The notes below the pieces were generated by a model. The model was not told where the DNA came from. It ran no database searches and worked only from the letters and a program-made list of their open reading frames with translations. Of a stretch of 64,000 nucleotides of DNA, positions 35,092-64,000 are shown in pieces (the stretch's first letter is position 1; every line of letters starts with the position of its first letter). Origin of the DNA: Alphaproteobacteria bacterium (lineage in GTDB: Bacteria; Pseudomonadota; Alphaproteobacteria; SP197); NCBI GenBank assembly GCA_964291265.2, contig OZ219747.1, forward strand, positions 2,304,001 through 2,368,000. The letters are read 5' to 3'. The translations under genes and the position numbers were made by a program.

Positions 35092-35564
35092 GGCCGCGGC
35101 GGCGTCGCCGGAAGAAGCCGCCGTCGAAGCACCTGACGGTCTCGGCGACGGACGCCGAGTGGGAGATGGTGAGGTCGCAAGCGGCAGGCCGCGGGCTCTC
35201 GATCGCCCGCTATCTCGTGGGCCTGGCGGCCCGGGACGGGGCCGAGGGCGACAGGGGACCGCCGCTGGTGCTGGCCGGGGTTCAGCAGCGGGAGCTCCTG
35301 GAGCTTCACCGGGAGATGCTCTCGCTGCTGCAGGGCGATGAGGACACATCGTCGCTGATGGCCGACATCCAGGCGCGGGTCGCGGTGATGTTCAACCTGT
35401 GGGCGAAGGACATGATCGCCCGCGGCCGGGAGGAGGATCTCCAGGCCGAGCTGGCCTCGATCCTCGGCGAGGAGCAGGCGGCCGCCGTCATGGCCTCCGT
35501 CAGGAGAACGACGACGGAGCGCCCGCGGGCCGCGGATACGGTCCAGCCGGATCTCTTTTCCTGA
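35088..35564 (+). CDS. Ribbon-helix-helix (MobC/NikA-like) protein 3
   Basis: HLTVSATDAEWEMVRSQAAGRGLSIARYLV; ATGA coupling. Confidence 0.72.
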   Translation: MRPRRRRRKKPPSKHLTVSATDAEWEMVRSQAAGRGLSIARYLVGLAARDGAEGDRGPPLVLAGVQQRELLELHREMLSLLQGDEDTSSLMADIQARVAVMFNLWAKDMIARGREEDLQAELASILGEEQAAAVMASVRRTTTERPRAADTVQPDLFS

Positions 35565-42356: not shown

Positions 42357-43133
42357 TCACTCCAGCGTCACGATCTCCAGCGACAGGTCCGGCGGCGGCA
42401 AGGGCGGCAACTCCGCCGCCGGCAGCATGGCCGTGACCGCAGGAGGAGTCTCGAGATACCGCACCACGAAGTCGGTCATGAGGCCGAAGAAGAACGCGCA
42501 GCCGACGAGAAGGGGAAGAGCCACGCCGGTAAGCCAGAAATCGCGGTGGGAGCGCTTGAGCGCCCGCTCGATATGCCCGAACCGAAGGCCGAGCGAGGCG
42601 GTGTTCCTGACGAGGTCGCCCAGCGTCCGCGCTTCGTCGGCCTGCGCCTCCTTCTTCTCCGCCATGGCGTCGTGCGTCTCCTTGCGCAGCGTCTCGACGG
42701 CAGTCGACAGCGCCGGGACGGCATCCGCGGCAGCGGCGAGCGTGTCGGCGATCCTGTTCAGCGTGTCGTTCAGGGCGGCAAGGTCGGCGTGAACGGCGGC
42801 TGCCGACTTCACGTTGGCCTCGTCGAGCCTCGCCGCAAGACCGGCGACGTTGGCAAGGACGCCCTGCACCGCCTCCATCAGCTCCGCGTGTCCCTCCGCA
42901 CCGTTGCTGTCTTGCTCCTTGAGCCGCTCCGCAAGGGAAACGACGGCATCGACCAGGGCCTTCAGGACTTTGAGTTGCTGCTCCATCGACTTCTGCAACG
43001 CCGCGCCCTGCTCGCCGACGAGGGACTGGCACGCGTCCACGGCAGCCTGGATCGCCTCCAGCGCCTCCCGGTCCGCCGACGCCAGGCGCTGTGCCGGTTC
43101 AAGCGGGCGAAGAAGAGTCTTTCCTCGTGTCAT
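42357..43133 (-). CDS. Coiled-coil protein with C-terminal TM helix, directly upstream of the relaxase
   Basis: GGGGGAG RBS, Ala/Leu heptads, hydrophobic FWLTGVALPLLVGCAFFFG; ends 6 bp before the relaxase start. Confidence 0.7.
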   Translation of the reverse strand: MTRGKTLLRPLEPAQRLASADREALEAIQAAVDACQSLVGEQGAALQKSMEQQLKVLKALVDAVVSLAERLKEQDSNGAEGHAELMEAVQGVLANVAGLAARLDEANVKSAAAVHADLAALNDTLNRIADTLAAAADAVPALSTAVETLRKETHDAMAEKKEAQADEARTLGDLVRNTASLGLRFGHIERALKRSHRDFWLTGVALPLLVGCAFFFGLMTDFVVRYLETPPAVTAMLPAAELPPLPPPDLSLEIVTLE

Positions 43134-43583
43134 GGCGCATCTCCCCCTGTCGTGACTTCGGCCCCTCCCCAGGCCATGACAGGGATGCACACAGGAAACC
43201 TGAGAATGCAACCGCTGAATCGACGGGGAGGGCAGCTACTCTGGAACTTTGGTAACTGCCCAGGTAACCGGCGAAGTCCTGAGTATGTGTTGACGTTGTT
43301 CGCGGTGAGCGTTGCTTAGTGTTGGCAAGTTGTTGATGCCGCATCCTCAACCAGTGACAATCGCCAACAACCACCTTGTGACCGAACGCTTGTAATGAAC
43401 AAATCTGACTGGCCGCGAGTGCGCATTCCGATCCCACCTTGCCGCCTAGACTACCCTCTGAAGAGACCGAACAAGCCATGATGGCTATATGCCAGCCGCT
43501 CTGGGATGCGGGAAAGATCCCAGTTGTAGGATGGGGAAGTGAGTTCGATGGAACTGAACTCCATCCCCCGTGTTTTCAGTGAA

Positions 43584-47500: not shown

Positions 47501-47774
47501 AGACGAAATTCCGAACACCGCGGTGCATCCGATCGTCGTCGATGGAGATATCACGCCAGTTGTCCTGGACGGTTTTCAACAACGCATGGACATCAAGCGC
47601 CTTCTCCGCAACCCCGCCACGGGCTCGGCTGGCGAAGCGATGCCAGTCCGGCCCGTGTCGCTGCTCCATGTACCTGGTCACATACGGTTCAAGACCAGTG
47701 CGTAGCGCTTCGAGTCCCGCTTCGACCCTTTGCTTGGCCTCAAGAGCAGCCTGTCTTTCGCCATCCCTTGTCAT
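44532..47774 (-). CDS. DUF499 AAA+ ATPase with N-terminal Swt1-like HEPN domain
   Basis: RNAVAH (Rx4H), LQTNFGGGKTHT, ILMDEV, AYPLHPEV, FQRTRGILK, poly-Pro linker near the C-terminus. Confidence 0.9.
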   Translation of the reverse strand: MTRDGERQAALEAKQRVEAGLEALRTGLEPYVTRYMEQRHGPDWHRFASRARGGVAEKALDVHALLKTVQDNWRDISIDDDRMHRGVRNFVFASMEARNAVAHFNGDLDPREALRHLDALGKVAEAVNASSQVRVIDRLYEEQRAVGTGRSDTRFPQLALDEAEVSHRLLPWREVCTPHADVLEAGVSDSKFAANLAQVDQGEGDEEYVDPAAFFRITYTTEGLSRVLTSTLARLAGTGGEPVIGLQTNFGGGKTHTMLALHHLAGAAEEGYKPEELAGLGAIFEAAGVETLGRVNRAVFVGTHKGAAEAMHTGDGREIRTLWGYLAWRLGGWSAFETIASSEAARTNPGSERLIPILRQAAPCLILMDEVVAFARQLRGLEYDAFHAFIQSLTETAAAVEHAVVIGSLPESGAEVGDEQGRDALQRLEKIFGRVQSAWTPASGTETYEIVRQRLFQPLDAAGEKARDDTVRAFRQFYRKHKADFPSEVLEKGYEDAMRRAYPLHPEVLARFSGDWSVLEKFQRTRGILKIMANVVHALWTGESATPLIMPAHLPFSEDKVRTALLEPLDRAFGPILQNEVDGDQSLSARIEVDRPRLARTRAVRSAARAVFFGTAPHAGAPRGGMSGTEIRLACAQPGDQISVFGEALEQVASRSAHLYRDGDSYWFSPLPTLNKLVDDRARDISDDEADQRIISMLRDDNRSREGFQRVHVAPDNPTDIEDQRAVALFILPPSRAHDRNVGSTSPAAIEAEAVLQRRGGSQRRYRNALVFVAANESDVTTTRNNARKELAWRSILEDSDMVANLTNAQTQDARTQAKRSHDSLQQGIRSTWVHILYPEHTANGGTGFSIQATRLTNRGSARTIAEAVWAKVTSDGTVLETLGPDNLVNELGKLWSEGDTHLRISTVRDWFATFVYLPRLRDDATLKEALEKLCGDAMSPYAYAADVDADGNYQGVREREVWLPDSYGDGLLVQRDAIQTPEPPPPPPPPPPPPPPIERKPTRFHATFDIDPDRAGLEVARIMDGLLAELTRPRGSSLSLTVELEGNVSDEGYPDDVVETVKANARDLKLDEESFGFEE

Positions 47775-47822
47775 GGGGCCTCTCCCGGTAGCAGCGTTGC
47801 GAACATCCGACAGTCACAGATG

Positions 47823-50717
47823 CTACAGGAACGAAGGCTCCTGGTCAGGAGCGCTGACAGCGCCTTCGAGCGCTGCCCACTCGCTCACAAGCATGTTCCA
47901 CGCCTGAGCCTCTGACGCGCGACCCGTGCGTTCACAGATATCATAGAGGCGGTAGGCGAGTTGCCGTGCCGCTTCTCCCTGCTCCGGCGGCATGCGTCCA
48001 TAGAGCCGTGCCGCTGCTTCGAGACCGCCTTCGCTCGCCTCCAGGACACGAACCAGATGTTGCGCACACTCCCACGCGGTGAGTCGCGTGTCGCTCTGCG
48101 GATCCCAATCGGGCGGCAACTCCTTGCGCAGCAGCAGGCGCGCCTCGCCGGCTCTGGCACTGAACACACCGGCGTTGTTGAGATCGTCGATGCTGATCCC
48201 GTAGGCCTGCGCCATGGTGATCGCTTCACCGGACGTGCCGCGTCTTGCGCCGAACGCTTCGAACCACTCGATGCAGAAGCGGGTATCAGGATCATACCCG
48301 GCGGCCTCTTCGCCCCCTATCTCGTCACGCACCTGGTTGATGAGAGCGATTGCGGTGCGAACGGTCATGGTCGAGTCGTCCGCCTCCAGCACCTTCGAGG
48401 CAGCTGTGAACACGCCCATACCGGGGCCAATGGATGCTTGAGCCATGTCGACCGGGCCAACGCCGCCTGAGCGGATCTTCGCAAGAGCGTCGGGCATCTG
48501 CGAGCGAAGTTTCGCGATGAACTCACGTCGTGTAATCACCGGTGCATCGACAGGGCGCTTGCGGCAAACCAGCACGATGGATGAGGCAAGTGCGTTGGCG
48601 CCGGAAGCGATCATGCGATTGGGAAGCTCCGTCTTTATCGGCCATGTGCCGTCGACTATGTAGCCAACATCGACGAGCCCCTGTAGAAAGGTCGCCCAGC
48701 CAGGAGACGTCAGCCCTTCCTTGGAAAGCTCGGTTTCCTTGAAGGCATAGTAAAGCGTCACGGGAAAGGCGCTGGCGCCACTCTGATGCATGTTGAGGAG
48801 CGCTTGGCGCATGCCGTCCATGAAGAACTGCTCCGCCTCTTCCTTGCCACCGTGACGGTACGGCGAGGCAACAAGCTCTTCATTCTTCGGCACCAGTACG
48901 CGTCTGAAAAGGTCGGGCCAGACATCGCGCAGCGTGCGCCGTTGCCACACGTAAAAGAAGTCCGACAGATCTGCATAGCTGATGTTGCCGTAGTAGGGCG
49001 GGTCCGTTGCGATGATCGCATCTTCGCCAAGCCCGGTGTCGTCGGCCGTGGCCTGTTGAATCACAGCGCTCCGGGCCGCCGCCGGGCTGTTGTCCACCAC
49101 ATTCGCGAGGTAGTCCACTTGCCCGACGAAACTGCCGCTAGAATTGCTGAACGGATTGGCTTCGCAGAAATCCCACACCATGGGGAGTGCTTGGCGCGCG
49201 AATACGTGTTCGACCTTGGCTCCACCGGTATGCCAGCGGCTGAGTTTCGAACTCCGGTTCACCTGCCGACTGACACACAGCCCCAGATAGGTCGCCACGG
49301 CGTCAGCGTAGGCACACGCTCCCGTGCCGCCGTCCGCCAGCCGTGTGGCATCGGGTGCCATTCCGGCCGCCAGCGCATCCGCCAGCACCTTCTCCCGCGC
49401 CTCGGCCACCAGATCCGAAAGCGTCGTCAGCGCCACCAGTTGCCGGTCAGTGAAGAGGGCGGCGAAGGTGGTAAGACCATAGCCGTAACATGTGCCGCCG
49501 GTGAGCCTACGAGGTACTTCACCACCGGGTGACCATTCCGGCTCAGCTGAACGAGCGACTTCCTCCATCTCGTCTGTTGGGTCGAGATAGACACGGCCAC
49601 GCTTGCCTTTTGTCACCACCGCCATCAGACGTGCGTCCATGCGCCCCGCCTTGCCCTCGGTCTTGATGTAGTCGGCTTGGATCAGCGTTCCCGAGATCAG
49701 GCAAGTGAAGTTGGCGCCACCACCGGCCCTGGCGCCCGACTGTGCCCTTGCCAGTTCCTCCGGCTCGATGCCGCCCGCTTTCACCGTGAACGAGTAGTCC
49801 ACGCTCTCACGACACACCTCGGGGACGACGACTGCTTCCATGCCTTTCTTCGATGACAGGACGAACGAGCTTGCCAGGGGCACGTGCGCGCCTCGCAGCA
49901 TTGGATCGGGCGAGGCGACAGTATGAACCCAGAACCAGGCAATGACGGTCAGTTCCTGCCCCACCCAAGGCTCGAGGTCGGAGCGTGCCGCCGCCATCGC
50001 TTTGGTGACCGGAACCTTCGGGTAGAGATGGCCGATGCTGGCCTCGGCCTTGTCTCGCATCCACTTGCCGAAATGGCGGATGTCCTCGGCGAGGCCCCGC
50101 GCGCCGTTCCACGCCACGTTCAGGTCGCGCGCCGGGTTCACTGGCTGCCGCCCGGCAAACTTCGGTGGGATCTCGCAGGTCGCCTTGGAAACCAGCACCG
50201 CCACAGGATTGAGGTCGGAACCGTGTGCCTTGAGGCCAAGGCGCTGTGCCTCCAAAGGGATCGAGCCACCACCACAGAACGGATCACAGACCGGAGGAGC
50301 ATTGCAGGCGAGCCAGTTAAGCACCGCATCCGGATCATCGCGTGGCGGTGTGCGCTCGCCCCGACCACGGGCGATGGAACGGGCGATCTCCCATCGCGCC
50401 TGCTCCAGGATGTAGCGCTTGTTGGAGTTCTTCCAGGGCACAAGCTGCTCGATGATCTTGTGCAGGCGATCGCGTTCAGCTGTCTGTGCTTCCTCCGTCG
50501 GAAACTCCTCCGGCCAGCTGGAAGGATCGTCCACCAGCTGGCTGAAGAGCACGGCTCGGCAGGATGCCAGGGGTCGCCGGGCCCACCAATGGTGAAACGT
50601 GGAAGGATGCCCGCGTGCGCCCGAGGGCTCCCGCTTCGAGGCCTTGTTGATGGTGTTCAGCGGCAGTGAAACCTCGATGAGCTTCCTGCGGTGCGGAGAG
50701 TGAGACAGAGTAGTCAT
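47823..50717 (-). CDS. DUF1156 adenine-specific DNA methyltransferase
   Basis: KLIEVSLPL, HHWWARRPLA, DPFCGGGSIPLEA, TDPPYY, NALASSIVLVCR. Confidence 0.92.
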   Translation of the reverse strand: MTTLSHSPHRRKLIEVSLPLNTINKASKREPSGARGHPSTFHHWWARRPLASCRAVLFSQLVDDPSSWPEEFPTEEAQTAERDRLHKIIEQLVPWKNSNKRYILEQARWEIARSIARGRGERTPPRDDPDAVLNWLACNAPPVCDPFCGGGSIPLEAQRLGLKAHGSDLNPVAVLVSKATCEIPPKFAGRQPVNPARDLNVAWNGARGLAEDIRHFGKWMRDKAEASIGHLYPKVPVTKAMAAARSDLEPWVGQELTVIAWFWVHTVASPDPMLRGAHVPLASSFVLSSKKGMEAVVVPEVCRESVDYSFTVKAGGIEPEELARAQSGARAGGGANFTCLISGTLIQADYIKTEGKAGRMDARLMAVVTKGKRGRVYLDPTDEMEEVARSAEPEWSPGGEVPRRLTGGTCYGYGLTTFAALFTDRQLVALTTLSDLVAEAREKVLADALAAGMAPDATRLADGGTGACAYADAVATYLGLCVSRQVNRSSKLSRWHTGGAKVEHVFARQALPMVWDFCEANPFSNSSGSFVGQVDYLANVVDNSPAAARSAVIQQATADDTGLGEDAIIATDPPYYGNISYADLSDFFYVWQRRTLRDVWPDLFRRVLVPKNEELVASPYRHGGKEEAEQFFMDGMRQALLNMHQSGASAFPVTLYYAFKETELSKEGLTSPGWATFLQGLVDVGYIVDGTWPIKTELPNRMIASGANALASSIVLVCRKRPVDAPVITRREFIAKLRSQMPDALAKIRSGGVGPVDMAQASIGPGMGVFTAASKVLEADDSTMTVRTAIALINQVRDEIGGEEAAGYDPDTRFCIEWFEAFGARRGTSGEAITMAQAYGISIDDLNNAGVFSARAGEARLLLRKELPPDWDPQSDTRLTAWECAQHLVRVLEASEGGLEAAARLYGRMPPEQGEAARQLAYRLYDICERTGRASEAQAWNMLVSEWAALEGAVSAPDQEPSFL

Positions 50718-53700
50718 ATGTCTTGCCGTGTCGTCTGTTGTGCGGCCGCCGCGATGGAGGCGATGGTGATGGCCCGATTGACCTCGTTGAAGCCCGGTTC
50801 GGAACCGAACAGGGGAGCGGGATCGGGAACATAGAGAGGTTCCTGCGCCACGCCGTCGCGGACGAGAACCGCAGCCAGAATGAAGGTCTCGCCCGCATTG
50901 AGTGCCGTCAGGATCTCGTTGCGCGTCAGCGTGATGGTACGCGCATCGGCACGGCGCCCCTTGACTTCTATGAAGCGCAAACGGCCGGTCTCCGGCTCCC
51001 GGCTTTCGATGTCGTAGCCTCGATCTTCCGACGAGACATCGCGCGGTTCGTTGCCAAGACCGCGTTCGTGGGCCATGACCGCTTCCATCGCCATGGTCTC
51101 GGTTTCTGCGCGGGAAAGGGAATCATGCGTCGTATCCGGTGGATCCCCGCCGTCATCGTCGGTCGAGCCGTTGCCAAGCAGCCGCGCAGGCACGATGAGA
51201 GCGGCTCCGCAGATCTCCGGTGGCAGCGGTGCGATGTCGCGTTGGCGCTCGATGTCAGCAAGACGCCGCTGCAGTCGTTCGTAAAGTGTATCGACTTGCC
51301 GCCGGATGTTCGCGGAATTGAGTCGGGAGCGTTTGCCGGCGCATTCCTCCGCCTCGACCTCAAGCGCGCGGTGCGTGAGGTGGGTGATTTCCCGGCGCAT
51401 GCGGTCTTTCACCGCATCCTCGACCTTGTCGAGATCACCAAGGTGCTTCACCCTGACCTCGTCCAGGTGGCGTGGAACCAGATCGGAAATCGCGAGGGCA
51501 CGGGCACGGTCTTCGAGCGGGCCCTTGAGCCACGGATCGTCCAGCAGCGCCGCCACGACCTCCCGTTCGGCGCCATCCAACGGACGGCAGTCGAGGTAGG
51601 GAGCGGGGCCGCCTTCGGCGGCCCGTCCGTTCTCGTCCAGCCAGACGAACTGAAGGCGCTCGGAGACTATCTGCGGCTGACCATTGCGGACGGTGCGGCC
51701 ATCGCGGATCGCATGGCGAAGGGCAACAAGGACCCGCGGAGCGTCGTGCCTGTCCGCCACATCGACGAGCGCGGCGCCCCTGGTCAGTAGATCCCGGTAG
51801 CGTTCCAGGGTCAGGTCAATCAGAGCGTCGAGAAGAGGGTGGCCCGGCGCCACCAGGGCCGCCTGAGGCTGACCGGAGACATGTGTCTTGTCGAAGCAGA
51901 TGCGACGGTAGCGCTCGAGCACGGGGTCGCTGCGTCCGATGAGGCGATCACGGTCACGCAGCAACGGCGGGACGCGCATGATCTCGACGCGCCCCTTCTC
52001 CCGACGGCGCATTCGGCCGCCGGCCTCCGCCAACGCCACCTCGAAGAAGGAGCCGATGTGGTGAGGCTGGAGACGCGAAGCTGCAGCCCTCTCCATCGCA
52101 TCACGGACTCCACGTACGGTTGAAGGATCAAGACCCTCCCGGGTGAGCTTGTTGCGGGCCACGAGGTCGTTGATGTTGTCGATATCGACCTTGCCGTCGA
52201 TTGTCCGGAACAGATTGGCGCGAACCTCGGGCCTTTCGCCGTAGCGGATCGCTTCCATGAAGAGATCCTTCAGGGGTCTGTCCTCGAAGAGCTCACCGAG
52301 CACGTCATAGACCTTGCCGCCAAGCGCCTCCCGCGCGGTCTCCAGCTTCTCCAGGAGCCGCTGATAAACTGCGCCCTCGCGTGTCTCACTGGCCACGAGA
52401 TTCCACAGGTGGCACACCTCGGTCTGACCGATCCGGTGGATCCGGCCAAAACGCTGCTCCAAGCGGTTGGGATTCCATGGCAGATCGTAGTTGACCATCA
52501 GGTGACCTCCTCGCTGGAGGTTGACACCTTCGCCCGCAGCGTCGTTGGCCAGCAGGAAACGCAAGACGGGATCGTCGTTGAAGGCCGCAATGATGGCGCG
52601 CCGACGATCACGCGGAACACTGCCGTGGATGAGCTCGACACTTTCGGGGATGCCGGTGCGGTCGCGGATCCTGTTGGCCAGATAGGTCAGCGTGTCGCGG
52701 GCCTCAGCAAAGATGACGATCTTCCTTCGGGCGCCACCCTCCTGACCGAGCACCATCGGATCGTCGAGGATGCGATCAAGTTCACGCCACTTGGTGTCCT
52801 CGCCGGAGCGGCGCAGCGTGTGGGCCATCCCTTCGAGGCGCCGCAATTCCGCGATCTCCGCTTCGAGTTCGGTGATGGTCTGTGCGGCGGTGGCGCGATC
52901 AACCAGGCGGTCCTCGTGAACCTCCAGTTCCTCGCCCGTAGCCTCCTCGAAGTCGTTTTCGTCGAAGCTGAGCTCCGTCGCTACCGATGACAACCGGTCA
53001 CGCACCGGTGGGTTCTTCCGGCCGTGTCTTTCTTCCACAAGCCTCGCCTCCAACCGCGCCAGACGGCGCTTCATCGATTCATGAATGGCCGCAGGCGAGG
53101 ACGCCAGGCGGCGCTGCAGGATCTGCAAGGCAAAGCCGATGTTGTTGCGGCGCTTCGCGCCATCAACAGCCAGACGGTCCGCACGGTTCATCTCCTCGCG
53201 CACATAGCGGGTGACGGCCTCATAGAGTTCGGCCTCCCTTTCCGACAACTCGTATGAGACGGTATAGGCGCGGCGCTCCGGAAACAGAGGCCTGCTGTCG
53301 AACCGGTAGAGTTCTTCCTTGGTGAGCCGCCGCATCATGTCCGACGGATCAACCTTGCGCACACCCTGCCGGAAACGCCCCTCGAAACGGTCGGCATCGA
53401 GGAGACCCATGAAGAGCTGGAAATCCTCCTCCTTGCCGTTGTGCGGCGTTGCCGTCATCAACAGGAGATGGCGAGTCAGACGGCCTGCCAGGGAACCCAA
53501 TTGAAAGCGCTTGGTGTATCGAACCTCCTGGCCAAAGAAGGAGGCCGACATGCGATGGGCTTCATCGCACACGATCAGGTCCCAGGGCGGCGCCTTCTCG
53601 AGCTTTGCCCGGAGATCGTCGTTGCGAGCAAGCATGTCGAGGCGCGCGATCAACCGCTGCCCTTCGGCAAAGGGATTGCCGGTCACAGAGGTCTCCACTC

Positions 53701-54253
53701 GCTCACGGCTCACGATGTCGAACGCAAGATCGAACTTGTCACTGAGTTCATCCTGCCATTGTTCGACCAGGCTGCCGGGCGCGATGATGAGACAGCGCTC
53801 AAGGCTGCCCCTGAGCAGAAGCTCCTTGATGAGCAGTCCAGCCATGACCGTCTTGCCGGCCCCGGGATCGTCGGCCAGAAGAAAGCGCAGTGGCTGACGC
53901 TCCAGCATCGTGCCGTAGACCGCCGTCAACTGGTGAGGCAGGGGTTCAATGTGTGACGCATTGACCGCCGCGTAGGGATCAAAGAGGTGGGCAAGGCGAA
54001 TACGAAGCGCCTCCGCGGCAAGCCTGAAGAGATGCCCATCACCATCGAAGGCAAACCGTCTGGCGGGAACAACTTCGCTCAATCGGGGTTCGTCATCGCG
54101 ATAGAGGACCCGCTGGCCCAGACCGGCCGGCCCTTTCCAGGTTATCTCAACCGCATCGGTGCCATAGGCGCGCGTGGCGACAATCTCCACCGCTCCTTCA
54201 CCGACGAGGCCCGTGAGGCGGCTGCCCTGCACAATGTTCTCAAGCCTTATCAT
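50714..54253 (-). CDS. SNF2-family helicase with C-terminal DUF3883 nuclease-like domain
   Basis: LADDPGAGKT, DEAH, TATPH, EGVNLQ, EQRFGRIHRIGQ, GYDIES..FIEVKGR..LTRNE. Confidence 0.93.
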   Translation of the reverse strand: MIRLENIVQGSRLTGLVGEGAVEIVATRAYGTDAVEITWKGPAGLGQRVLYRDDEPRLSEVVPARRFAFDGDGHLFRLAAEALRIRLAHLFDPYAAVNASHIEPLPHQLTAVYGTMLERQPLRFLLADDPGAGKTVMAGLLIKELLLRGSLERCLIIAPGSLVEQWQDELSDKFDLAFDIVSRERVETSVTGNPFAEGQRLIARLDMLARNDDLRAKLEKAPPWDLIVCDEAHRMSASFFGQEVRYTKRFQLGSLAGRLTRHLLLMTATPHNGKEEDFQLFMGLLDADRFEGRFRQGVRKVDPSDMMRRLTKEELYRFDSRPLFPERRAYTVSYELSEREAELYEAVTRYVREEMNRADRLAVDGAKRRNNIGFALQILQRRLASSPAAIHESMKRRLARLEARLVEERHGRKNPPVRDRLSSVATELSFDENDFEEATGEELEVHEDRLVDRATAAQTITELEAEIAELRRLEGMAHTLRRSGEDTKWRELDRILDDPMVLGQEGGARRKIVIFAEARDTLTYLANRIRDRTGIPESVELIHGSVPRDRRRAIIAAFNDDPVLRFLLANDAAGEGVNLQRGGHLMVNYDLPWNPNRLEQRFGRIHRIGQTEVCHLWNLVASETREGAVYQRLLEKLETAREALGGKVYDVLGELFEDRPLKDLFMEAIRYGERPEVRANLFRTIDGKVDIDNINDLVARNKLTREGLDPSTVRGVRDAMERAAASRLQPHHIGSFFEVALAEAGGRMRRREKGRVEIMRVPPLLRDRDRLIGRSDPVLERYRRICFDKTHVSGQPQAALVAPGHPLLDALIDLTLERYRDLLTRGAALVDVADRHDAPRVLVALRHAIRDGRTVRNGQPQIVSERLQFVWLDENGRAAEGGPAPYLDCRPLDGAEREVVAALLDDPWLKGPLEDRARALAISDLVPRHLDEVRVKHLGDLDKVEDAVKDRMRREITHLTHRALEVEAEECAGKRSRLNSANIRRQVDTLYERLQRRLADIERQRDIAPLPPEICGAALIVPARLLGNGSTDDDGGDPPDTTHDSLSRAETETMAMEAVMAHERGLGNEPRDVSSEDRGYDIESREPETGRLRFIEVKGRRADARTITLTRNEILTALNAGETFILAAVLVRDGVAQEPLYVPDPAPLFGSEPGFNEVNRAITIASIAAAAQQTTRQDI

Positions 54254-54413
54254 GTCGAAGGAATACACCGCTTTACGTGAATGGCGCTATTGAAAGATTG
54301 TAATAACTACTCACCCCTTGTTGGGGTCTGACGGGGCACCATGTAGTAAGCCTTCGGTCACGCAGTGACAGGGACACAACGGAACTGATCGAGCACGAGC
54401 GAGACCCCTAGCC

Positions 54414-56829
54414 CTGCCGAGTAATGACAATTACGACGTGACGTCAAGGGTCTGAATGTGTTGCAAGGGTTGCCGCTGTCCGGCCCGGAAGCCGACTTGA
54501 TGGCCAAGAACGGCGCTGGTCAGGCGGGTCGCGCCGTGCCACATGATCTGGTGTCCGGGCTCGGGATCATGCTTGCGATCCTGGTACCCGCCGAGATGGG
54601 CCACCAGGCGGACGGCATCCTCGAGGCGGTCGGGCGGCGTCATGCGCTTCTCGGCGGCGTAGTCGCGCAGGAAGCTCAGCTCTTGATCGGTGAACATCAG
54701 CTCGGGCTCACAGTCGGGAACCTGCCGTCCGAGCAGGGTCATGACCATGATGCGCCAGGCGATGACGGCGTTGATGGCGATGGCCCGCTGCAGTCGTTCT
54801 GCGGTCCGGAACAGCAGGAACTCGGTGCGACAGCCTGACTTGAGGACGCGGAAGAAGTCTTCGACCTTCCATCTCTGGAGGTAGAAGCCGACCATCCTGG
54901 CGGCATCCTCGGCGCTGCGCACCTTGAGCGTGGTGAGCAGGAACCACTGCACCGGGTTCTCGCCCTCGGGAGGATCGGTTTCGATGATGTGGACACCGGA
55001 AAGGGCGAGCGGCGCCCGGCCTTCGAGGGTGGAGGGCAAGGTCACGCGGCGGAACCGCAGTGCGCACTGAGCCACGCGTTTGCGTCGGGCCGCACGCGCC
55101 TTCGTTCGGCTCGCCTTCGGACGCTCGCTCAGGCCGTCGACCTCGACGGTGACGCCGCCGTCGGGCGGGCCTGCGCTCAAGGTTGCAAACAGCTTTGCGC
55201 GCCCCTTGCCGAGAACCCGGTCATGTCGGGCTCGGACCAGAAGCCCGACCCGTGGGTTGAGACGTTGATGATCGAACAGCTCGAAGAAGTCCGCTTCCCG
55301 ATCACAGACCGAGATCACGCGCGTCGTGCTTGCGACGTCGCGAACCGCTTCGTCGATGTCCTTGAAGCCTTCCATCCAGCGTCGGCTCTTCAACCGCTCC
55401 TCGGCCGCCGGGGAGCGCTGCTTCACCGCATCGAACCCCAGACGCAGAACCCCGAGCGGCAACCCCGTCTCGCTCACCGCCAGCGTCGCATGCAGGTGCA
55501 AACCCCGGGCCGACGAGGAGGTCTGGTTCTTGCCGATGACCTGAAGACCTTCGCATCCCGGCCGCCGGGAGAAATTGAGGTCGCTCCCGTCCTGGATCGC
55601 CAGCACGGTCGTTTGACCCTGGATGCGCCGGATCGTGCGCTCCCGATGCGGAGCAAGAATGTTCGCCACCGTCACCGCACTCTCCACCGGCTTCTCGATC
55701 AGGCGGTAGAAAGCACTGATCGCCGTGTTGTCGGCATCCGTGCTCGCGTGAATCTTGGAACCGGGACAGGAGGCCAGAAGAGCCGCACTCTTCACCAGGC
55801 GTGCCGACAGTCGCTTGTCACCCAAGGGAGCCCCTCCGAATTCGTTCGCCGCCCACACCGCACCATCCAGACCGTCTCCGGGTCCCAGCGACCAGGCAGG
55901 GTCGACCGGACCCACTCCCAGCTTGCGTCGCCAGCGCCGATCCAGACCGCGCATCCAGACCGTCTTGACGGTCTTGGCAGCGCGATGGTGACGATCCTGA
56001 CGACCCCGACCCTTCGTCCGCCCCGCACACACGAAGTTCGCAGCCCGCAGGCAGGTCCCGGCATAGCCCTCGTCCGCATAGGTTTCCACCACCAGGGGAC
56101 GGAACCCATACCGGGCCTCGAAATCCCTCGGTAGGCGCCGGAGAAGTCGCCCCAGAACATGGCTCGCCAGGTGCCGGCACCGCACCCGAAGCAGAAACCG
56201 GCTCAGACAGACCACCCGCTGGAGATGATCCCGCCGCTGGGACGGCGTCCATGCCATCCAGCGGTCGCGGGCCTCGCCCGTCAACGCCGCCGCCGAGATC
56301 CCGACCGCACCCAGGATCCCGTGCTCCGACGTCACAAGATAGCGCACCTGACAGCCGGCAAACGTCGTCATGCCATGAGGATGCTCGCGCGCCATCAACG
56401 TGTTCCATACCGTTCGCTCCGAAACCTCGGTCACCACCGACAGTTGCACCTGCGCAATCCCGGACAGACGGGACGGCACCCCGACCGGCAGCGGCACTTC
56501 TCCGTCAAGAAGACGCGGAGAGTTGTCCACGGCAGCAGCCTGCGGTGCCGGAAGCCGGATCTCCGGATACGACGATGCCAACGTGGTCAGGGCCTTCAGA
56601 CAACTCGACAGCTGCCAACGCCCGGCCGCGTCCCGGAACGAAAACTCTTCGCATACCCGGCGGCTCGCAGCCCGACGGCCAGAGTGCTGCTCCTGCGACA
56701 GGATGGCAGCAACGCGCGCCCGGGCCCCGTCCTCGCGCAGAGTGTGAAGAATGCTGGATTGTGCCATCATGGCGGCAAGCTAGCGCAGACCGAGCGGCAC
56801 GTCCAGACCTAATTTTCATGACATGGCAG
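54414..56829 (-). mobile_element. IS4-family insertion sequence
   Basis: 20-bp TIRs CTGCCGAGTAATGACAATTA / CTGCCATGTCATGAAAATTA (16/20); 8-bp TSD CCCTAGCC at 54406-54413 and 56830-56837. Confidence 0.88.
54431..56770 (-). CDS. IS4/IS50-like DDE transposase fused to an N-terminal DUF4338 domain
   Basis: DUF4338-like SRFLL..LASHVLG..LVVETY..GTCLRAANF..GRTKGRGR, then LGDKRL, IQDGSD, CDREAD, YLQRWKVEDFFRVLKSGC. Confidence 0.88.
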   Translation of the reverse strand: MMAQSSILHTLREDGARARVAAILSQEQHSGRRAASRRVCEEFSFRDAAGRWQLSSCLKALTTLASSYPEIRLPAPQAAAVDNSPRLLDGEVPLPVGVPSRLSGIAQVQLSVVTEVSERTVWNTLMAREHPHGMTTFAGCQVRYLVTSEHGILGAVGISAAALTGEARDRWMAWTPSQRRDHLQRVVCLSRFLLRVRCRHLASHVLGRLLRRLPRDFEARYGFRPLVVETYADEGYAGTCLRAANFVCAGRTKGRGRQDRHHRAAKTVKTVWMRGLDRRWRRKLGVGPVDPAWSLGPGDGLDGAVWAANEFGGAPLGDKRLSARLVKSAALLASCPGSKIHASTDADNTAISAFYRLIEKPVESAVTVANILAPHRERTIRRIQGQTTVLAIQDGSDLNFSRRPGCEGLQVIGKNQTSSSARGLHLHATLAVSETGLPLGVLRLGFDAVKQRSPAAEERLKSRRWMEGFKDIDEAVRDVASTTRVISVCDREADFFELFDHQRLNPRVGLLVRARHDRVLGKGRAKLFATLSAGPPDGGVTVEVDGLSERPKASRTKARAARRKRVAQCALRFRRVTLPSTLEGRAPLALSGVHIIETDPPEGENPVQWFLLTTLKVRSAEDAARMVGFYLQRWKVEDFFRVLKSGCRTEFLLFRTAERLQRAIAINAVIAWRIMVMTLLGRQVPDCEPELMFTDQELSFLRDYAAEKRMTPPDRLEDAVRLVAHLGGYQDRKHDPEPGHQIMWHGATRLTSAVLGHQVGFRAGQRQPLQHIQTLDVTS

Positions 56830-56835
56830 CCCTAG

Positions 56836-58619
56836 CCCGGATTTGTCACCAAGTTTCCTATTGATGGGGATGGGGTTTGTGATATATGCACAAGACCAAT
56901 GAGTTACATACACCAAGGAGCCCATCCACATGGCGACACAGTGTTCAGCACAACAACTGGAGTTTGAAGGTCTCGGACGGCGGCAGATTGTGGCTAATTT
57001 CGATGGTGGCCGCATGACCTCCGACGGTGGTGCGCTTCTGTTGCGGGAAGCAGACAGGCTTTTCAACGTGACGGAGCGTGTCGCTGGCGCTTTTGTTGAT
57101 TATCGTGATCCCAGTCGCATTGAACACGATGTGACGACACTGGTGGCGCAGCGCATCATCGCTTTGGCTCTGGGTTACGAGGGTCTCAACGATCATGACC
57201 GTCTGCGTGACGACCCTGCTCTGGCCCTGGCTTGCGGGATCGACGATGTGGAGGGAGAGAGACGGGTTCGCGAGCGGGACCGTGGACATGTGCTGGCGGC
57301 CTCGAGCACGCTGAACCGCCTGGAACTCGGCGATCCGCATGAGGCGAGCCTGGACCGCTACAAGAAGATCGTGGCCGATCACGAAGCACTGGACTGTCTT
57401 CTTGTGGACCTGTTTCTGGAGAGCCATGCGGAACCGCCCAAGGAGATTGTTCTGGATCTTGATGCCACCGACGATCCGGTGCATGGCGACCAGGAGGGCA
57501 AGTACTTCCACGGCTATGACGACCACCATGGCTTCCTGCCGCTGTTCGTCGTCTGCGGCGAGCACATCCTGCGCTGCCGGTTGCGGACGGCCGACCATGG
57601 CGCGGCGGATGGCTCGGTGGATGAGCTGTCACGGATCGTTGAGCAGATCCGCGGCACGTGGCCCCGGACACGGATCGTGGTGCGGGGGGATGCCGACTTC
57701 GGCACGGACGACATCATGGTCTGGTGCGAGGACCATGGTGTCGACTATGTCTTTGGATAGGGTCAGAATCCTCGCTTGAACAGCATGGTCACGAAGGCAC
57801 TCAACAAGTCGAGGCGGCGTTGTCTGGTGTCCGGCAAGCCATCCAGACGGTATCGGGATCTGCGGTATCGCACGCAGAAGTCATGGTCCCGCGAGCGGCG
57901 AGTGGTGGCCAAGGCGGAATGGCTACCGGGACCGCGCGGCAAGAACGCTCGTTACATTGTGACGAGCATCTCCAGGAAGGAGGTCGGCGCTCGGGAACTC
58001 TATGAGCAGTTGTACTGTGCTCGGGGAGACATGGAGAACCGGATCAAGGATCAGCAGTTGTGGCTGTTCTCCGATCGCACGTCGTGCCATGTCATGCGGG
58101 CCAACCAGCTGCGCATGTACTTCTCGGCCTTTGCCGGCGCCCTCGTCGACATCCTGCGCCGTGTCGGCCTGCACGGCACCGAGTGTGCCCGCTGGCGCGT
58201 CGACACCATACGCTCCCGGTTGTTCAAGCTTGCCGGCAGGGTGACGAAGACGGTGCGCCGGCTTCGCCTCTCCTTTGCCTCGATCTTCCCCTTGCAGGAG
58301 GTGTTCGCCCGCACTCTCGTCAACCTGCGTGCCGCGGCCCAGGCGCCGCCGCCGGGATAGCTTGTGCTGCATCCCATCACAGTCTGATCACAGCGTCTCC
58401 CGAAGGCGTCGCCAGGGGTGTGCCTGGCGCATGTCCCGGCATAGACACGAACGCCAAAAAACGGCTTTCGGCTCCCTTGGCCTGCCAAAATGAGCCGAAA
58501 AACTATCCCAAATGCGACACGATTCCGCCAACAGCGCAATCAAAGTGAACCTTGTCTGCGCCCGAGGCTGAAGATTACGCCATCATTCCACTATCATTCC
58601 CCTTGGTGACGGAACCGGG
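56836..58619 (+). mobile_element. IS1380-family insertion sequence
   Basis: 18-bp TIRs CCCGGATTTGTCACCAAG / CCCGGTTCCGTCACCAAG (15/18); CTAG on both flanks (56832-56835, 58620-58623). Confidence 0.88.
56930..58360 (+). pseudogene. IS1380 transposase with one in-frame TAG at 57758-57760
   Basis: FDGGRMTSDGGALLL, LDLDATDD, RGDADF, then YCARGDMENRIKD in the same frame after the stop. Confidence 0.9.
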
Positions 58620-58885: not shown

Positions 58886-60088
58886 GTGATGCCAAGAATT
58901 AGTCGTGGAAAAGGACGAGAGCGACGACTGCGTGAGAGACTCTTTGACGCAGGGAACAATAGATGCCCAATATGTCTTTCCGTCTTTAATCGATCAGATG
59001 TATCGAATGGAACAAGCGTGACGCTTGAACACGCGCCACCCAAGTCATTAGGAGGAAATCCGATATGTTTGACCTGCAAGGCTTGCAACAACAAGACAAG
59101 CAAAGCAGACCATCACGCATTCTTGTCTGCAAAAGCTAGAGATGAGTGGGCGGGAGGCCAAGGATCTCCCATTGACGTGAATTTTCTGGGCCATAAGAGA
59201 AAATACAGGTTTATCCCCAAAAATTCAAACGCTCCGTTTCCGGCACAGAAACACCTGTTTCAAAGCGGCATCATTAAACTAGATGCGTTACCATCGAAAT
59301 TGGACTTGTGTGCATATGAAGGAATCAGTTTCAAGATTCCACACCGCGACGACTTTGAATTTGTGAGCATGATTAAATCCGCCTATCTAATGGTTTTCGC
59401 TCTAATGGGTACACATGGATATCAATTCGCTGAAAATGTTGGAGTTCGTTTAATCAGAGAACAAATAATGAACCCTGAAGAGAAAATACTTAAAGGCGGT
59501 TTTGTCGGTGAAATGAAAGTTGATTCCGAGGACTTCCGCAAAATTGATAGGACAATAGTTTTCTTGCTCAATACAAGCCCCTATCCAATTTGGATAGTGC
59601 CGATGTCGCATGGTAGGATAGTTGTTTTGCCATCTGGCAACGCAGAACCAATCAATGAGTTAGTGATGAGTCCGAAACGAGTTGATGTTTCACTTGGCAA
59701 TTTGACTGGGTGGATATCGAGAAAGTTCAGTGATTCATCTGCAATTGGAGGCCCTATCAGAGAGTGGGGGAGCGACTTGCAAAAAACATCACTGGTGGGT
59801 ACTTTTGCCGGACCTATTCCCACAAGTAGGGAGCATTGGCGGTTTATTGTTGTTTTTTGTCAGGCGCAAAGGTATGTGGCATTGCCATTTTCTCCAATGG
59901 ACTGTCTTGACGAGGACTGTTCTGATGATTTAGATTTCATCAATGTAGTTGATATGTTTGGCGAGCCGGAGGTTAGGGGGAGAAAATTGGATAGGAGTCA
60001 ACTCACAACTACCGGCTTTTCTCATGCGAGAGAAATTACTATGGTCCGCAAGACAGGGAATGATGAACAAGGCTTTAAGGAGGATTAA
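58886..60088 (+). CDS. HNH endonuclease domain protein, AT-rich
   Basis: CPIC...TLEHAPPKSLGG...CKACNN; AGGAG RBS; visibly lower GC than the flanks. Confidence 0.82.
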   Translation: MMPRISRGKGRERRLRERLFDAGNNRCPICLSVFNRSDVSNGTSVTLEHAPPKSLGGNPICLTCKACNNKTSKADHHAFLSAKARDEWAGGQGSPIDVNFLGHKRKYRFIPKNSNAPFPAQKHLFQSGIIKLDALPSKLDLCAYEGISFKIPHRDDFEFVSMIKSAYLMVFALMGTHGYQFAENVGVRLIREQIMNPEEKILKGGFVGEMKVDSEDFRKIDRTIVFLLNTSPYPIWIVPMSHGRIVVLPSGNAEPINELVMSPKRVDVSLGNLTGWISRKFSDSSAIGGPIREWGSDLQKTSLVGTFAGPIPTSREHWRFIVVFCQAQRYVALPFSPMDCLDEDCSDDLDFINVVDMFGEPEVRGRKLDRSQLTTTGFSHAREITMVRKTGNDEQGFKED

Positions 60089-60347: not shown

Positions 60348-61505
60348 TCAGGATTCCGTGCCCGATGCCATGATCTGTGTCATGACGTTCCCGACCCGCT
60401 CCGCCGCCGCCTCGACATCCCTGTCCGCAACGTGGGCATAGCGCAGGGTCATTGACACTTGGCGGTGACCGAGGAGTTTCGCCACTGTCGGAAGTGGCAC
60501 ACCATTCAGGACAGCCTGGCTGGCAAAGTTGTGTCGCAGGTCATGCAGACGCACATCCTCGATGCCGGCCCGTTTGCGGAGGGTAATCCACATCTGATCG
60601 ACGCTCGATATGGGTGCGGTTGGATCGCAGGGCGACGGAAAGACATGATCGCTGCCCGCCCTGGGCTGACGAGCAATGATCCGGCGGGCCTTGCTGTTGA
60701 GGTAGACTTTCCGTGGTCCGGTCTTGCTGTCGGCAAGATCGAGCGTGTCGGTTCCGACTTCGGACCACCTGAGGGTTCGGATTTCGCTGCAACGGCATCC
60801 CGTATAGAAGAGCAGGCGAATGATGTCTGCCTGAGCCGATCGCCCCGGGCGTTCGGCGACCAACCGGTCCAGTTCGGCATGCAGGCGACGGGCCTCGTCC
60901 CGGGACAGGAACCGGTTGAACCTGCGTTGCGGGTTCCGGCGAATTCCGTTTGCTGGATTGGTCTCGAGATGACCATGAACCGCCGCGTGGTTGAGAATTT
61001 GGCGCAAGGTGTCAAGAGTCCTGTTAGCACCACCGGGCGCCGTCGCGCTGTAGCGGTCGAACCAGGCCATCACCTCCTTGCGTGTGATCCGGTCCAGCGG
61101 CATGTCGCCGAAGGTCGGCAACAGTTGATGTGTTAGTACGCTGTCGGTGCTGCGCCGGGTGTTGGGCTTGAGACGACCGAAACACTCGGAACGCCAGACA
61201 CCTGCGACAAAGTCGCCGAAGAGAGGTACGGGAACCAGGGGAGTGTCCACCAGCGGTTCCATGTCGCCGGACTGGATGGCGAGACACCGGGAGCGCGCTT
61301 CCTCGACAGACATGCTTGTCACGGGACCCAGCGTCCGGCGTTTCGAGGAACCGTGCCGGGAGTTCAGGACAACGAACGACTTGTGGCCGGAAGACCGCAC
61401 CCTGACGCCAAGGCCCATAATCCGCGTGTCCCATACGGTATACTCGACGGGCATCGTCGCAAGGCGCGCAATGGTGCGATCACTCAACCGCATCTTTCGT
61501 TTCAT
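60348..61505 (-). CDS. Tyrosine recombinase/integrase 2 with arm-binding N-terminus
   Basis: WDTRIMGLGVRV, TGCRCSEI, DSKTG, HDLRHNFAS, LLGH, TLRYAH. Confidence 0.95.
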   Translation of the reverse strand: MKRKMRLSDRTIARLATMPVEYTVWDTRIMGLGVRVRSSGHKSFVVLNSRHGSSKRRTLGPVTSMSVEEARSRCLAIQSGDMEPLVDTPLVPVPLFGDFVAGVWRSECFGRLKPNTRRSTDSVLTHQLLPTFGDMPLDRITRKEVMAWFDRYSATAPGGANRTLDTLRQILNHAAVHGHLETNPANGIRRNPQRRFNRFLSRDEARRLHAELDRLVAERPGRSAQADIIRLLFYTGCRCSEIRTLRWSEVGTDTLDLADSKTGPRKVYLNSKARRIIARQPRAGSDHVFPSPCDPTAPISSVDQMWITLRKRAGIEDVRLHDLRHNFASQAVLNGVPLPTVAKLLGHRQVSMTLRYAHVADRDVEAAAERVGNVMTQIMASGTES

Positions 61506-62638
61506 ACCTCGACCCTCCCACCCAGGGCCGAAACAAGGGACTCGGCTACCTCGTGAACCGTGTCATCGGCAAGATGCGTGTACTTGAGCGTGGTCGCTGG
61601 ATCAGTGTGGCCCAGAAGCTTGCCTATGGTGGGGATCGTCTCGCCATGAGCGAGTGCTATCGAGGCGTAGGTGTGACGCAAGTCATGGCAGCGAACATCC
61701 GCGATCCCCGCCTCCGAGCGCACATTGAGCCAGAAGCGGTGGAGCCCACCCGCCGAAAGGTGGCGACCTCCACGGGGAGACGGGAACATCCAGCGGCCCC
61801 TTCGGGGCAGCCCGTCAAGGATCCGGCGTGCCGCTGATGACAGCCAGACCGTGCGCGGGCCCGTCTTGCTGTCACGCAAGTAGAGCTTGCCCTCACGGTA
61901 GTCCGACCACCGGAGACCGAGAACCTCGCTCTTGCGACATCCGGTCAGAAGCAGCAATCGCACGATCGCGGCCAACAGGGAGCTCTTTTCGCGCTTGTCG
62001 TTGAGAACTCGGCCCAAGCGCCTGATCTCGTCGTGGCTGAGGAACCTCTCGCGATGGCGTCGGCGGTAGCGCTTGATGCCTTTGCAAGGATTGGAGCCTT
62101 CCGGACGATAGCCGTAGACCTCGGCCTGCCGCATGATGACGGAAAGAACCGGCGCTGAACGGTCCGCGGCAACGGGCGTGGCATGAAGTGAAGCGAACCA
62201 GCGCTGAACGTCGTGTCGCGTGATGTCCCTTATGGCACGCCCCTTGAAACACGGCAGGATCTGGTTCCTGAGGTAGCCGAGATTGACCTCCAGGGTGCGT
62301 GGCTTCCAGTGCCTCCGGTATCGCTTGAAGACCTCGTCTGCGACATCCTCGAACAGGATGGCTTCGGTCTCGACAGGCAAGGCTCCGTCAGTCGTGGAGC
62401 GTGACGCGAGAAGGGATGTTGCCTTGTTCCGGGCGCACTCCAGAGCCATGGCCCCGGCGTCGCCTATGGGGTGCCAGACCCTCTTGCCGTCGACCTGGCT
62501 GTGAAGGAAGTACCGCTTGCGGCCTGAGGGGAGGATACGCACACCGAAACCCCGGATGACGGTATCCCGAACGTCGAGGGTCTTCTTGTCCGGTTTGAGG
62601 GTATCGACCCGTCGTTGCGTGAGGTGTCTCTTCGGCAT
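61502..62638 (-). CDS. Tyrosine recombinase/integrase 1 with arm-binding N-terminus
   Basis: DTVIRGFGVRI, TGCRKSEV, DSKTG, HDLRHTYAS, LLGH, TLKYTH; ATGA-coupled to integrase 2. Confidence 0.95.
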   Translation of the reverse strand: MPKRHLTQRRVDTLKPDKKTLDVRDTVIRGFGVRILPSGRKRYFLHSQVDGKRVWHPIGDAGAMALECARNKATSLLASRSTTDGALPVETEAILFEDVADEVFKRYRRHWKPRTLEVNLGYLRNQILPCFKGRAIRDITRHDVQRWFASLHATPVAADRSAPVLSVIMRQAEVYGYRPEGSNPCKGIKRYRRRHRERFLSHDEIRRLGRVLNDKREKSSLLAAIVRLLLLTGCRKSEVLGLRWSDYREGKLYLRDSKTGPRTVWLSSAARRILDGLPRRGRWMFPSPRGGRHLSAGGLHRFWLNVRSEAGIADVRCHDLRHTYASIALAHGETIPTIGKLLGHTDPATTLKYTHLADDTVHEVAESLVSALGGRVEV

Positions 62639-62755: not shown

Positions 62756-62779
62756 GCACCACAGGTGCGCGGTAGGTGT
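62756..62779 (+). other. Right junction: hairpin GCACC-ACA-GGTGC plus direct repeat CGCGGTAGGTGT; candidate MOBF oriT/nic half-site
   Basis: Hairpin at 62756-62768 and repeat at 62768-62779 are seen directly; the likeness to R388 and IncN nic regions is from memory. Confidence 0.7.
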
Positions 62780-63497
62780 GCAGCTCGTCGAGGACCAGAA
62801 ACCGGAGTCCCACAGCATGTTCGCGAATCGCCTTGTCGGTCTCGAGGAACCGCGTCATGACCAGCTCGAGCATGACGTAGTTGGTCAGCAGAATATCGGG
62901 AGGGTTCTTCGCGATCAGCTCGCGCTCCTCCTGGGTTTCCTGTCCTGTATAACGGGCGAAGGTGACCGGCTCGCCGCCTTCGCCGTAACCAAGCCGCAGA
63001 TACTTCTCCAGTTCCTCGCGCTGGCTGTTGCAGAGCGCATTCATCGGATAGACGACGATGGCCGTGATGCCGCGATAGATGTCGTCGGCGCGTTTCCGCC
63101 GCAACACGTCGTCGACGATGGGGATGAAGTAGGCGAGCGACTTGCCCGAGCCCGTGCCGGTGGTCAGGACATAGCTCTCGCCGCGTCCGGCAATTCCGAT
63201 GGCGTCTGTCTGGTGCCGGTGCAGCAGGAGGCGCTCGCCGAACGTGTCATCTGGACGCTTGAGCCGGAAGACTCTCGCGCATTCCGGGTCGAGTGTGCCG
63301 TCAGCGACCAGGTCGTCGATGTATCCGCCCCGCTCGAAGTTAGGATTGAGCTGGATGAGCGGGGTCGGCCAGAAGTGGCCTGCGGCATAGGCTGCATCGA
63401 CTACGCGGGAGATGTCCTCGGCGCGGATCCTGGAGAAGCTTCGGGAAAACCGCTCGTATTCGGCGACGAGCTCTTCCCGGAAGGCGAAGACATCCAT
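62768..63497 (-). pseudogene. DEAD/DEAH helicase, upstream part of the interrupted gene
   Basis: HRHQ, TTGTGSGKSLAY, YPMNALCNSQ, RYTGQE, PPDILLTNYVMLE, LVLDELHTYR, then breaks at the repeat. Confidence 0.92.
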
Positions 63498-64000
63498 CAG
63501 CGGCTCCCCGCCGCGGCGGCATTGGCATGCGCCTCGATCACGGCGCACCGCTCCATCAGGGCATCGAACGATTCGGTGTCGTCCAGCAGCATGCCATCGG
63601 CGAGCATCCGGGCGTAGTCATCGGCGAGTACCGCACGCGCGGCGCCGGAGGGGACGAGTTGGAGGTCACCGGAAACCGCGACTTCGTAATCAATCCTCGA
63701 GCCGGTCGCGTCGTTCTCTGTGAAGAACATCGCCTTGTGGCGGGCAACCGACAGGGCGAGGGCGCGATCGGCGAGCGCGTTTGCCGCAATCCCCGCCTCG
63801 TCAAGACGCGCGAGATCGTGCCAATGCCTCGACAGACGCTCGCCGCGCTGCCGCTCCTGGCGGCAGAAGACATGGATGGCGGTCGCTTTCTCCCAGAACG
63901 TGCGCTCCGCCAGCATGACGGCGGGGCTCGCCTCGGGAAACGCAAGGTCCGGCAAATGCGCAGCTGCGTCGCAAACGACCGGATGAATTGTGTGCGGCTC
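63497..64000 (-). CDS. AbiEii/AbiGii-family nucleotidyltransferase toxin, 5' part outside the window
   Basis: AERTFWEKAT..H, SRHWHDL, HKAMFF, DYARM; its TGA overlaps the helicase ATG. Confidence 0.85.
   Translation of the reverse strand, partial: EPHTIHPVVCDAAAHLPDLAFPEASPAVMLAERTFWEKATAIHVFCRQERQRGERLSRHWHDLARLDEAGIAANALADRALALSVARHKAMFFTENDATGSRIDYEVAVSGDLQLVPSGAARAVLADDYARMLADGMLLDDTESFDALMERCAVIEAHANAAAAGSR

Follow-up and report, generated by a model that had tools for sequence, protein, structure and literature searches.

A tandem-recombinase mobile element with a MOBF nick-like attachment site in an alphaproteobacterial helicase gene

The window, by which we mean the whole 64,000-nucleotide stretch of DNA that was analysed, contains a mobile element of 28,686 bp (28.7 kb; 34094-62779) that is bounded by a nic-like site and splits the DEAH motif of a helicase gene. 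The 5' part of the target gene (62780..63548, minus strand) encodes a DruE3-like DEAH helicase that is cut in motif II, and the 3' part (32910..34093, minus strand) is further truncated downstream. When 34094-62779 is excised in silico, an open 673-codon stop-to-stop helicase frame results that runs through DELHTYRGRQG. Uninterrupted orthologues of the target gene are present in 3 of 22 other genomes of the genus, and two of them carry a 10-mer identical to the one at the element's junctions, indicating that this core is the native sequence of the target.

The right end of the element carries a perfect 5-bp hairpin, GCACC-ACA-GGTGC (62756..62768, plus strand), followed by a single G and then by the right copy of a 10-bp exchanged core (62770..62779, plus strand), which consists of five bases that we call N5 (here CGGTA) and GGTGT, with the predicted nick after 62779. 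The left copy of the core (34084..34093, plus strand) lies inside a 12-bp repeat; exactly these 12 bp are common to both junctions (34082-34093 = 62768-62779), and the identity ends at TGT| with 0 bp of extension rightwards. The earlier note had reported this hairpin and repeat, and our junction comparison bears it out. It had also pointed to the exact stop at TGT|, which is not diagnostic: 9 of 31 repeats in the family run past TGT|, as chance predicts (p = 0.28), and the repeat of the plasmid relatives described below runs 2 bp further. The stop was dropped as proof of relaxase action. A likeness of GGTGCG to what we take to be the XerC arm of dif was dropped as well, since the bases beside the overlap would be the variable ones. 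As a fold, the right-end hairpin alone is weak (z -0.71), and Rfam has no match within 33000-64000.

The right junction of the integrated element thus described retains both the hairpin and the nic-like core, and it has two features of MOBF nic sites of the R388/F type, namely an inverted repeat just 5' of the predicted nick and G-T-(G/C)-T^R at the nick itself. The hairpin arms are the inner arms of R388 IR2. According to the accessible parts of PMC4176350, the R388 nic oligonucleotide has a hairpin with the same arms, a 4-nt loop and 9 nt from hairpin to nick, so that the likeness to R388 that the earlier note had named holds for the arms and fails for the spacer, which is 11 nt at the element's right junction. 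The same source states that TrwC requires nearly invariant bases between hairpin and U-turn in addition to the 9-nt spacer, whereas the lineage studied here has 11-12 nt with a free N5 in place of a near-invariant 9-nt stretch. The F and R100 nic sites end GTGT^G (PMC3074121, available portion).

Two tyrosine recombinase genes read away from the hairpin. Int1 (61502..62638, minus strand) and Int2 (60348..61505, minus strand) are 37% identical to one another, and each has an arm-binding domain and an intact R-K-H-R-H-Y set. At the other end of the element, a non-coding stretch (34094..34462, plus strand) that is common to sister elements E210 and E368 from its first base is followed by a NikA-like ribbon-helix-helix ORF (34463..34801, plus strand; below the Pfam cut-off), a second NikA-like ORF (34759..35091, plus strand; just below the Pfam cut-off, with an inferred start) and a conserved 160-aa ORF of the left-end module (35082..35564, plus strand) that has no family match. 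The next gene encodes a MOBF (TrwC-like) relaxase-helicase of 2249 aa (35601..42350, minus strand). It scores 265 bits against NF041492 (cut-off 100), its best PDB match is TrwC, and it has Y17, Y18, Y23 and Y24, in agreement with the earlier description of a MOBF relaxase with two YY pairs. Y17 aligns with TrwC Y18, and R82, D86, R130 and H154/H165/H167 are likewise intact. Among 33 family relaxases, Y17 is invariant, Y18 is mostly F or L and Y24 is kept in 32; the HUH residues and the arginines aligned to TrwC R81/R128, which we take to be IR2 contacts, are invariant in all 33. The C-terminal extension of the relaxase, about 1300 aa (window 36000-39500), has no Pfam matches and contains diverged internal repeats. 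Upstream of the relaxase gene lies a 284-aa ORF with weak SMC-like matches (42357..43211, minus strand) that is kept in the closest sisters. The region 43134-43583, which had been named as an alternative place for the nick, resembles repeats dispersed over the genome, among the matches listed.

The cargo comprises an Hma defence system (hmaC, hmaB, hmaA; 44532..54268, minus strand), a Tn5/IS4-type transposase with a DruA-like N-terminus (minus strand) together with a split DDE_Tnp_1_4 transposase (plus strand) at 54431..58360, and a low-GC ORF with a weak HNH match (58886..60088, plus strand). With its Hma cargo, the element disrupts the DruE3-like helicase gene beside an AbiEii-like gene (62780-63955), which places defence cargo within a defence island. 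A scan of 32 ORFs revealed no type IV secretion system (T4SS), coupling-protein or mating-pair family in the element. With its own integrases at one end, att direct repeats and a relaxase that is not accompanied by a mating-pair system, the element has, by sequence, the make-up of an integrative mobilizable element (IME).

We then compared the site across the family. This genome has eight occurrences of the pattern hairpin-N5-8-GTGT, all of them upstream of int1 homologues, and a reversed-pattern control gives none; therefore, the association is not due to chance. Across 41 genomes the pattern occurs 85 times in 14 of them; 13 of 22 congeners have it, and none of 18 genomes outside the genus does. 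When the search starts from the protein, 81 of 92 int1 homologues have the hairpin-core pattern upstream, all 81 ends having been gathered as sequences upstream of int1; in an earlier, pattern-first set, an int1 match lies within 200 bp of 57 of 59 ends. The site is a family trait: all five hairpin pairs are present in 85 of 92 ends, two of which owe this to compensatory changes, and the loop varies freely. The hairpin-core site is also found in metagenome-assembled genomes (MAGs) of other Alphaproteobacteria and in one Chloroflexota MAG. The strict pattern is scarce outside the genus (6 of 400 genomes of the phylum, about as many as for the reversed control, with no integrase adjoining), and a subfamily-specific pattern gave no matches in metagenome contigs.

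All six catalytic residues are present in 73 of 73 Int1 homologues and in 65-66 of 66 Int2 homologues, and Int2 was located behind Int1 at 69 of 74 ends. Site type tracks the int1 tree, a quick tree in which type A forms one clade, slightly better than it tracks the relaxase tree, in a comparison among kin that are not independent; E953, for example, has a type-B site although its relaxase is A-associated. Seven of the 31 delimited elements lack a relaxase match, one of them probably through a false left end, which leaves six complete relaxase-free elements, and the relaxase-free elements retain the hairpin.

The hairpin, the GTGT^R, the invariant relaxase residues, the lack of another shared canonical nic and the ancestry described below all point to a role of the att site as an origin of transfer (oriT), as far as sequence can speak to it. 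It is unlikely, though by no means negligible as a possibility, that the site is instead a recombinase site inherited from oriT-targeting ancestors, is no longer nicked, and leaves the relaxase to use another, unrecognised origin. A site of that kind would fit the 11-12-nt spacer with its free N5, set against the 9 nt and near-invariant bases of TrwC, as well as the hairpins of relaxase-free elements and the rarity of helper secretion systems in the genus, where VirB4 families occur in 0 and 2 of 23 genomes and VirD4-like single genes in 13 of 23. It would not fit the retention of the five hairpin pairs around a free loop, with its two compensatory cases, or the fixation of GTGT^R while the adjoining N5 drifts. 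Furthermore, site type and relaxase clade mostly travel together with 5-40 kb of variable cargo in between, and a scan of 24 relaxase-bearing elements for one motif, the canonical TGCG-N4-GT[GC]T site, revealed none that they have in common (42 matches, 55 expected). As a separate observation, the 23 genomes of the genus hold many relaxase-bearing elements and almost no VirB4-type ATPase.

The core itself was analysed through its two copies. Among 62 ends with at least 15 kb of upstream DNA, 31 have an exact left copy of their own 10-mer (2.8 expected), one of these 31 left ends being probably an IS copy and not an end. Left-end homology added five repeats with a single mismatch (four times at -6 and once at -7) and one with three mismatches, which gives 37 delimited elements, 31 of them with exact repeats; for 26 right ends no left end was found. 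The single mismatches cluster at -6 (4 of 5, p about 0.03). The minimal repeat measures exactly 10 bp in 17 of the 31 elements and has a sharp left edge at -10; a length of 10 bp exceeds the overlap of 6-8 bp that is usual. N5 takes 72 values among 81 ends, and empty copies of the target, where present, usually carry the same 10-mer as the element. Targets show a weak likeness on both sides of N5: 64 of 80 have a purine at +1, where 24 would be expected, and 12 of 15 type A targets have C at -12. This genome contains 2810 GGTGT-purine sites, only three of which have the element's full core plus a purine, and two of these are the element's own junctions. The earlier note had supposed, as one of two options, a chromosomal nic mimic as the target; the data describe instead any matching N5-GGTGT^R.

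Several elements lie in repeated DNA. Five of the seven delimited elements in this genome are in multi-copy repeats or IS (G000:C2 at 936304, 1751349, 2129349, 2160230 and 3662067), and two different elements occupy the same position of a ~30-copy repeat. Locus L073 (G005:C1:1299467-1311500) contains three repeats of 2.4-3.1 kb that have diverged; each ends in a degenerate hairpin and includes a copy of a gene into which full elements in G005, G013 and G019 have also inserted. The locus is possibly an array of small satellite elements. Three diverged type-B elements (L041, L086 and L179) each lie within a gene at a DTN(V) motif, which resembles the start of a PIN-domain toxin. Elsewhere in the window, at 9894-9997, there is a 38-nt direct repeat whose copies match perfectly and are spaced by 66 nt.

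How N5 changes between related elements bears on the mechanism of integration. The closest sisters (96-99% identical; E917 versus E953 and E214) share 4-5 of the 5 N5 bases, pairs of elements that are less than 95% identical share about 1.4, and pairs that are 90-95% identical are at background (11 pairs, mean about 1.45). Diverged elements have repeatedly used the same target genes, as in a case where the flanks are 86% identical and the integrase modules 72%. One sister trio and these repeated target genes give a thin indication that N5 may be inherited from hop to hop in a guide-like manner. The imperfect repeats point both ways, a polarity for which later point mutation may also account: in G005b it is the left copy that agrees with the empty site, E173 has a right copy identical to 8 of 8 orthologues, and in G005g three orthologues match the left copy while the closest one matches the right. 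E368 (G000:C2:3662067-3680041) has G at -4 at both junctions where the six closest empty IS copies carry C, the nearest of them differing at one other base in 800. This suggests that the target was converted by the element, through repair or through repeated excision and re-entry, and the case is not fully explained.

One quite unlikely account of these data is that the core is copied from the target at each insertion, by staggered, non-reciprocal joining followed by gap filling, so that any GGTGT^R could serve as target. Copying would explain the 72 N5 values, the background similarity of N5 below 95% identity and the perfection of 31 of 37 repeats. It would leave unexplained why the near-identical trio shares 4-5 of 5 bases, why diverged elements strike the same genes and why mismatches concentrate at -6; in addition, an unsystematic look at the cargo revealed no gene for a DDE enzyme common to the elements.

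The earlier note had offered two ways in which the element might have entered its site: either the relaxase integrated it into a nic mimic, or the recombinases crossed over inside the nic-like site. Integration by a TrwC-style strand transfer at TGT^, by the relaxase alone or with the recombinases and with a 3' tail of N5-GGTGT pairing to the target, is in our estimation very unlikely. The note's statement that TrwC can integrate transferred DNA into nic-containing targets is confirmed by engineered assays (PMC3264647, in the part available). The homology spans exactly the 10 nt before the predicted nick, the purine preferred at +1 recalls R388 and F, and a relaxase acting in trans could serve the relaxase-free elements. 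If a single top-strand exchange took place at TGT|, however, the left copy would always carry the target's N5 and the right copy the old one, with no renewal of N5; sisters that are 90-95% identical nevertheless agree in N5 no more than background pairs do. The right copy of E173 matches the orthologues, both mismatch polarities occur, six complete elements have no relaxase, and two intact recombinases are present at nearly every end; the repeat of the plasmid relatives also runs past TGT. A more specific version, in which the relaxase and the recombinase pair act together, the circle is opened by the relaxase at TGT^, the 10-nt tail thereby exposed base-pairs with the target and each hop rewrites five of the tail's bases, strikes us as improbable. 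If that version were true, it would amount to DNA-guided integration with a self-editing guide, derived from transfer-origin parasites.

Given that N5 is at background in 90-95% identical sisters and that polarity goes both ways, reciprocal exchange by Int1 and Int2 is favoured. Thus, integration was most likely carried out by Int1 and Int2, the second of the two proposals, which fits best with the relaxase-free elements, the intact integrase at every end and the two polarities. Our preferred explanation, which we consider probable, is that the element belongs to a tandem-recombinase family with a MOBF nick-like att site, that Int1 and Int2 exchange strands inside the 10-bp core, and that the same site is the origin of transfer on the circle. 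Its ancestors would have targeted the oriTs of helper plasmids and used the helper's relaxase. In this lineage the hairpin may then have shifted 2-3 nt out of the core, the target specificity may have relaxed to N5-GGTGT^R, and many copies may have acquired a TrwC-like relaxase of their own. Reciprocal exchange within the 10-bp core would require nearly complete homology and tolerate about one mismatch, mostly at -6; segregation of the heteroduplex would let the element adopt the N5 of its target, so that the core drifts from hop to hop. On the excised circle, the same site would act as the element's transfer origin. Against this explanation stand the 31 perfect repeats of 37 and E368, which reciprocal exchange alone leaves unexplained, the repeat length beyond the usual overlap, the 26 right ends for which no left end was found, the long spacer with its free N5 in view of what TrwC requires, and the scarcity of helper systems in the genus.

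We searched by tblastn for tandem homologues of the recombinases on named plasmids (35-47% identity) and examined 17 records. GCG-N4-7-GTGT-R lies upstream of the first gene in 8 of 14 tandem pairs versus 1 of 27 single integrases; the sole positive single integrase is a pair cut by the end of the locus, and many singles, judged by eye, abut tRNA ends. A strict hairpin test was passed by 8 of 15 relatives, against an expectation of 1.3; the spacer between hairpin and nick is 9 nt in these plasmid and sphingomonad relatives, whose arms differ considerably in sequence. Four Shewanella plasmids carry GCGTGGGGTGT, the F nic sequence, at both element junctions, and the outer copy has the plasmid's long hairpin; in three S. 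baltica plasmids this outer copy adjoins a small gene facing traI. Three empty Shewanella sister plasmids have the nic site once. Photobacterium pPHDD1 has a nic-like core at both junctions, and its empty sister plasmid likewise carries the site once. In total, the core is present at both junctions in six plasmids, four from Shewanella and two from Photobacterium, and in the five with an annotated traI it lies on that gene's leading-region side. Three Photobacterium elements have one common hairpin and three different cores; in the two whose opposite end was covered by the record, the core recurs there. The Shewanella and Photobacterium repeats run 2 bp past TGT, and the inserts contain no annotated relaxase. 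In two sphingomonad elements the repeats are 12-14 bp long and the targets have no hairpin. The site of L228 ends GTGG, the distant pairs L270 and L271 have no clear site, and no left partner was found within the examined DNA for L228, L229, L230, L266, L269, L272 and L273. The plasmid relatives L262-L264 and L268 carry restriction-modification, retron Ec67 or DRT3 cargo, and relatives of this type in Shewanella plasmids lie at the edge of the leading region.

From their sequence and position, the Shewanella and Photobacterium plasmid sites are probably functional oriTs. Since distant relatives of the recombinase pair sit in F-type nic sites and duplicate them, the att = nic design is, judging from these comparisons, ancestral. 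The oriT-like design proposed in the earlier note is thereby supported and lies deeper than was claimed, reaching relatives in F-type plasmid nic sites; the target is no single special nic mimic.

As a rule, integration takes place at one site and transfer starts at another; in this element a single short site appears to serve both purposes. Throughout the Proteobacteria, this integrase family seems to recognise MOBF nic sites. On plasmids of Shewanella and Photobacterium, a nic-like core stands at both ends of 7-13-kb cargo, often defence genes, at the leading-region edge. F TraI acting on paired oriTs starts at one copy and stops at the other (PMC3074121, available portion), and by analogy a helper relaxase could start at one copy of the core and stop at the other, a simple route for hitching. 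The version with relaxed specificity has spread in the present genus, reaching up to 16 copies per genome. If the core is homology-matched and can change, the short target of the integrase pair would be programmable.

A full-text search of the literature, with subscription papers mostly outside its scope, returned no description of tandem-recombinase elements with a MOBF nic as att, and the text of PMC5102898 does not mention integrases. According to the accessible part of a 2017 review, no known IME encoded a MobF relaxase (PMC5704250), and the accessible part of a 2026 preprint (10.64898/2026.01.13.699239) counts MOBF relaxases among chromosomal and plasmid elements. In comparison with the oriTs of R388 and F, as the available portions of the papers cited above describe them, the element shares the arms of R388 IR2, the GTGT^R of F and R100 and a MOBF relaxase with intact HUH motif and tyrosines; unlike R388 and F, it has five free bases where TrwC is sequence-specific, and it has no coupling-protein or mating-pair genes. 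With Tn916 and CTnDOT it shares tyrosine recombination, a short variable target-derived spacer and low target specificity, and with Tn6283 it shares two tyrosine recombinase genes (PMC5812530, PMC5991714, both in part). Those elements leave unlike spacers (coupling sequences) at their two ends, whereas 31 of the 37 delimited elements described above have identical ends, and the ends lie in a nic-like site. MTnPi1-3 resemble it in having two tyrosine integrases and several copies per genome and in being mobilizable, but the available text of PMC5704250 describes them as low-specificity duo-integrase IMEs of Bacteroidetes with AT-rich targets.

The streptococcal IME_oriT insert into a helper element's oriT; these integrative mobilizable elements carry a relaxase gene of their own and have direct repeats on either side (PMC7563843, accessible part). 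By analogy with that description, they are the closest known system. The Shewanella and Photobacterium relatives also integrate, by sequence and position, in a helper's oriT, and the plasmid-borne relatives probably work alike. The present copy sits in a helicase gene and is no member of that group. IME_oriT, as that source describes them, have a single integrase, a Rep_trans relaxase and oriT targets of the Tn916/ICESt3 family in Firmicutes, whereas the family described here has two recombinases, a MOBF relaxase and nic, hosts among the Proteobacteria and a lineage whose core varies and matches its target at dozens of unrelated sites.
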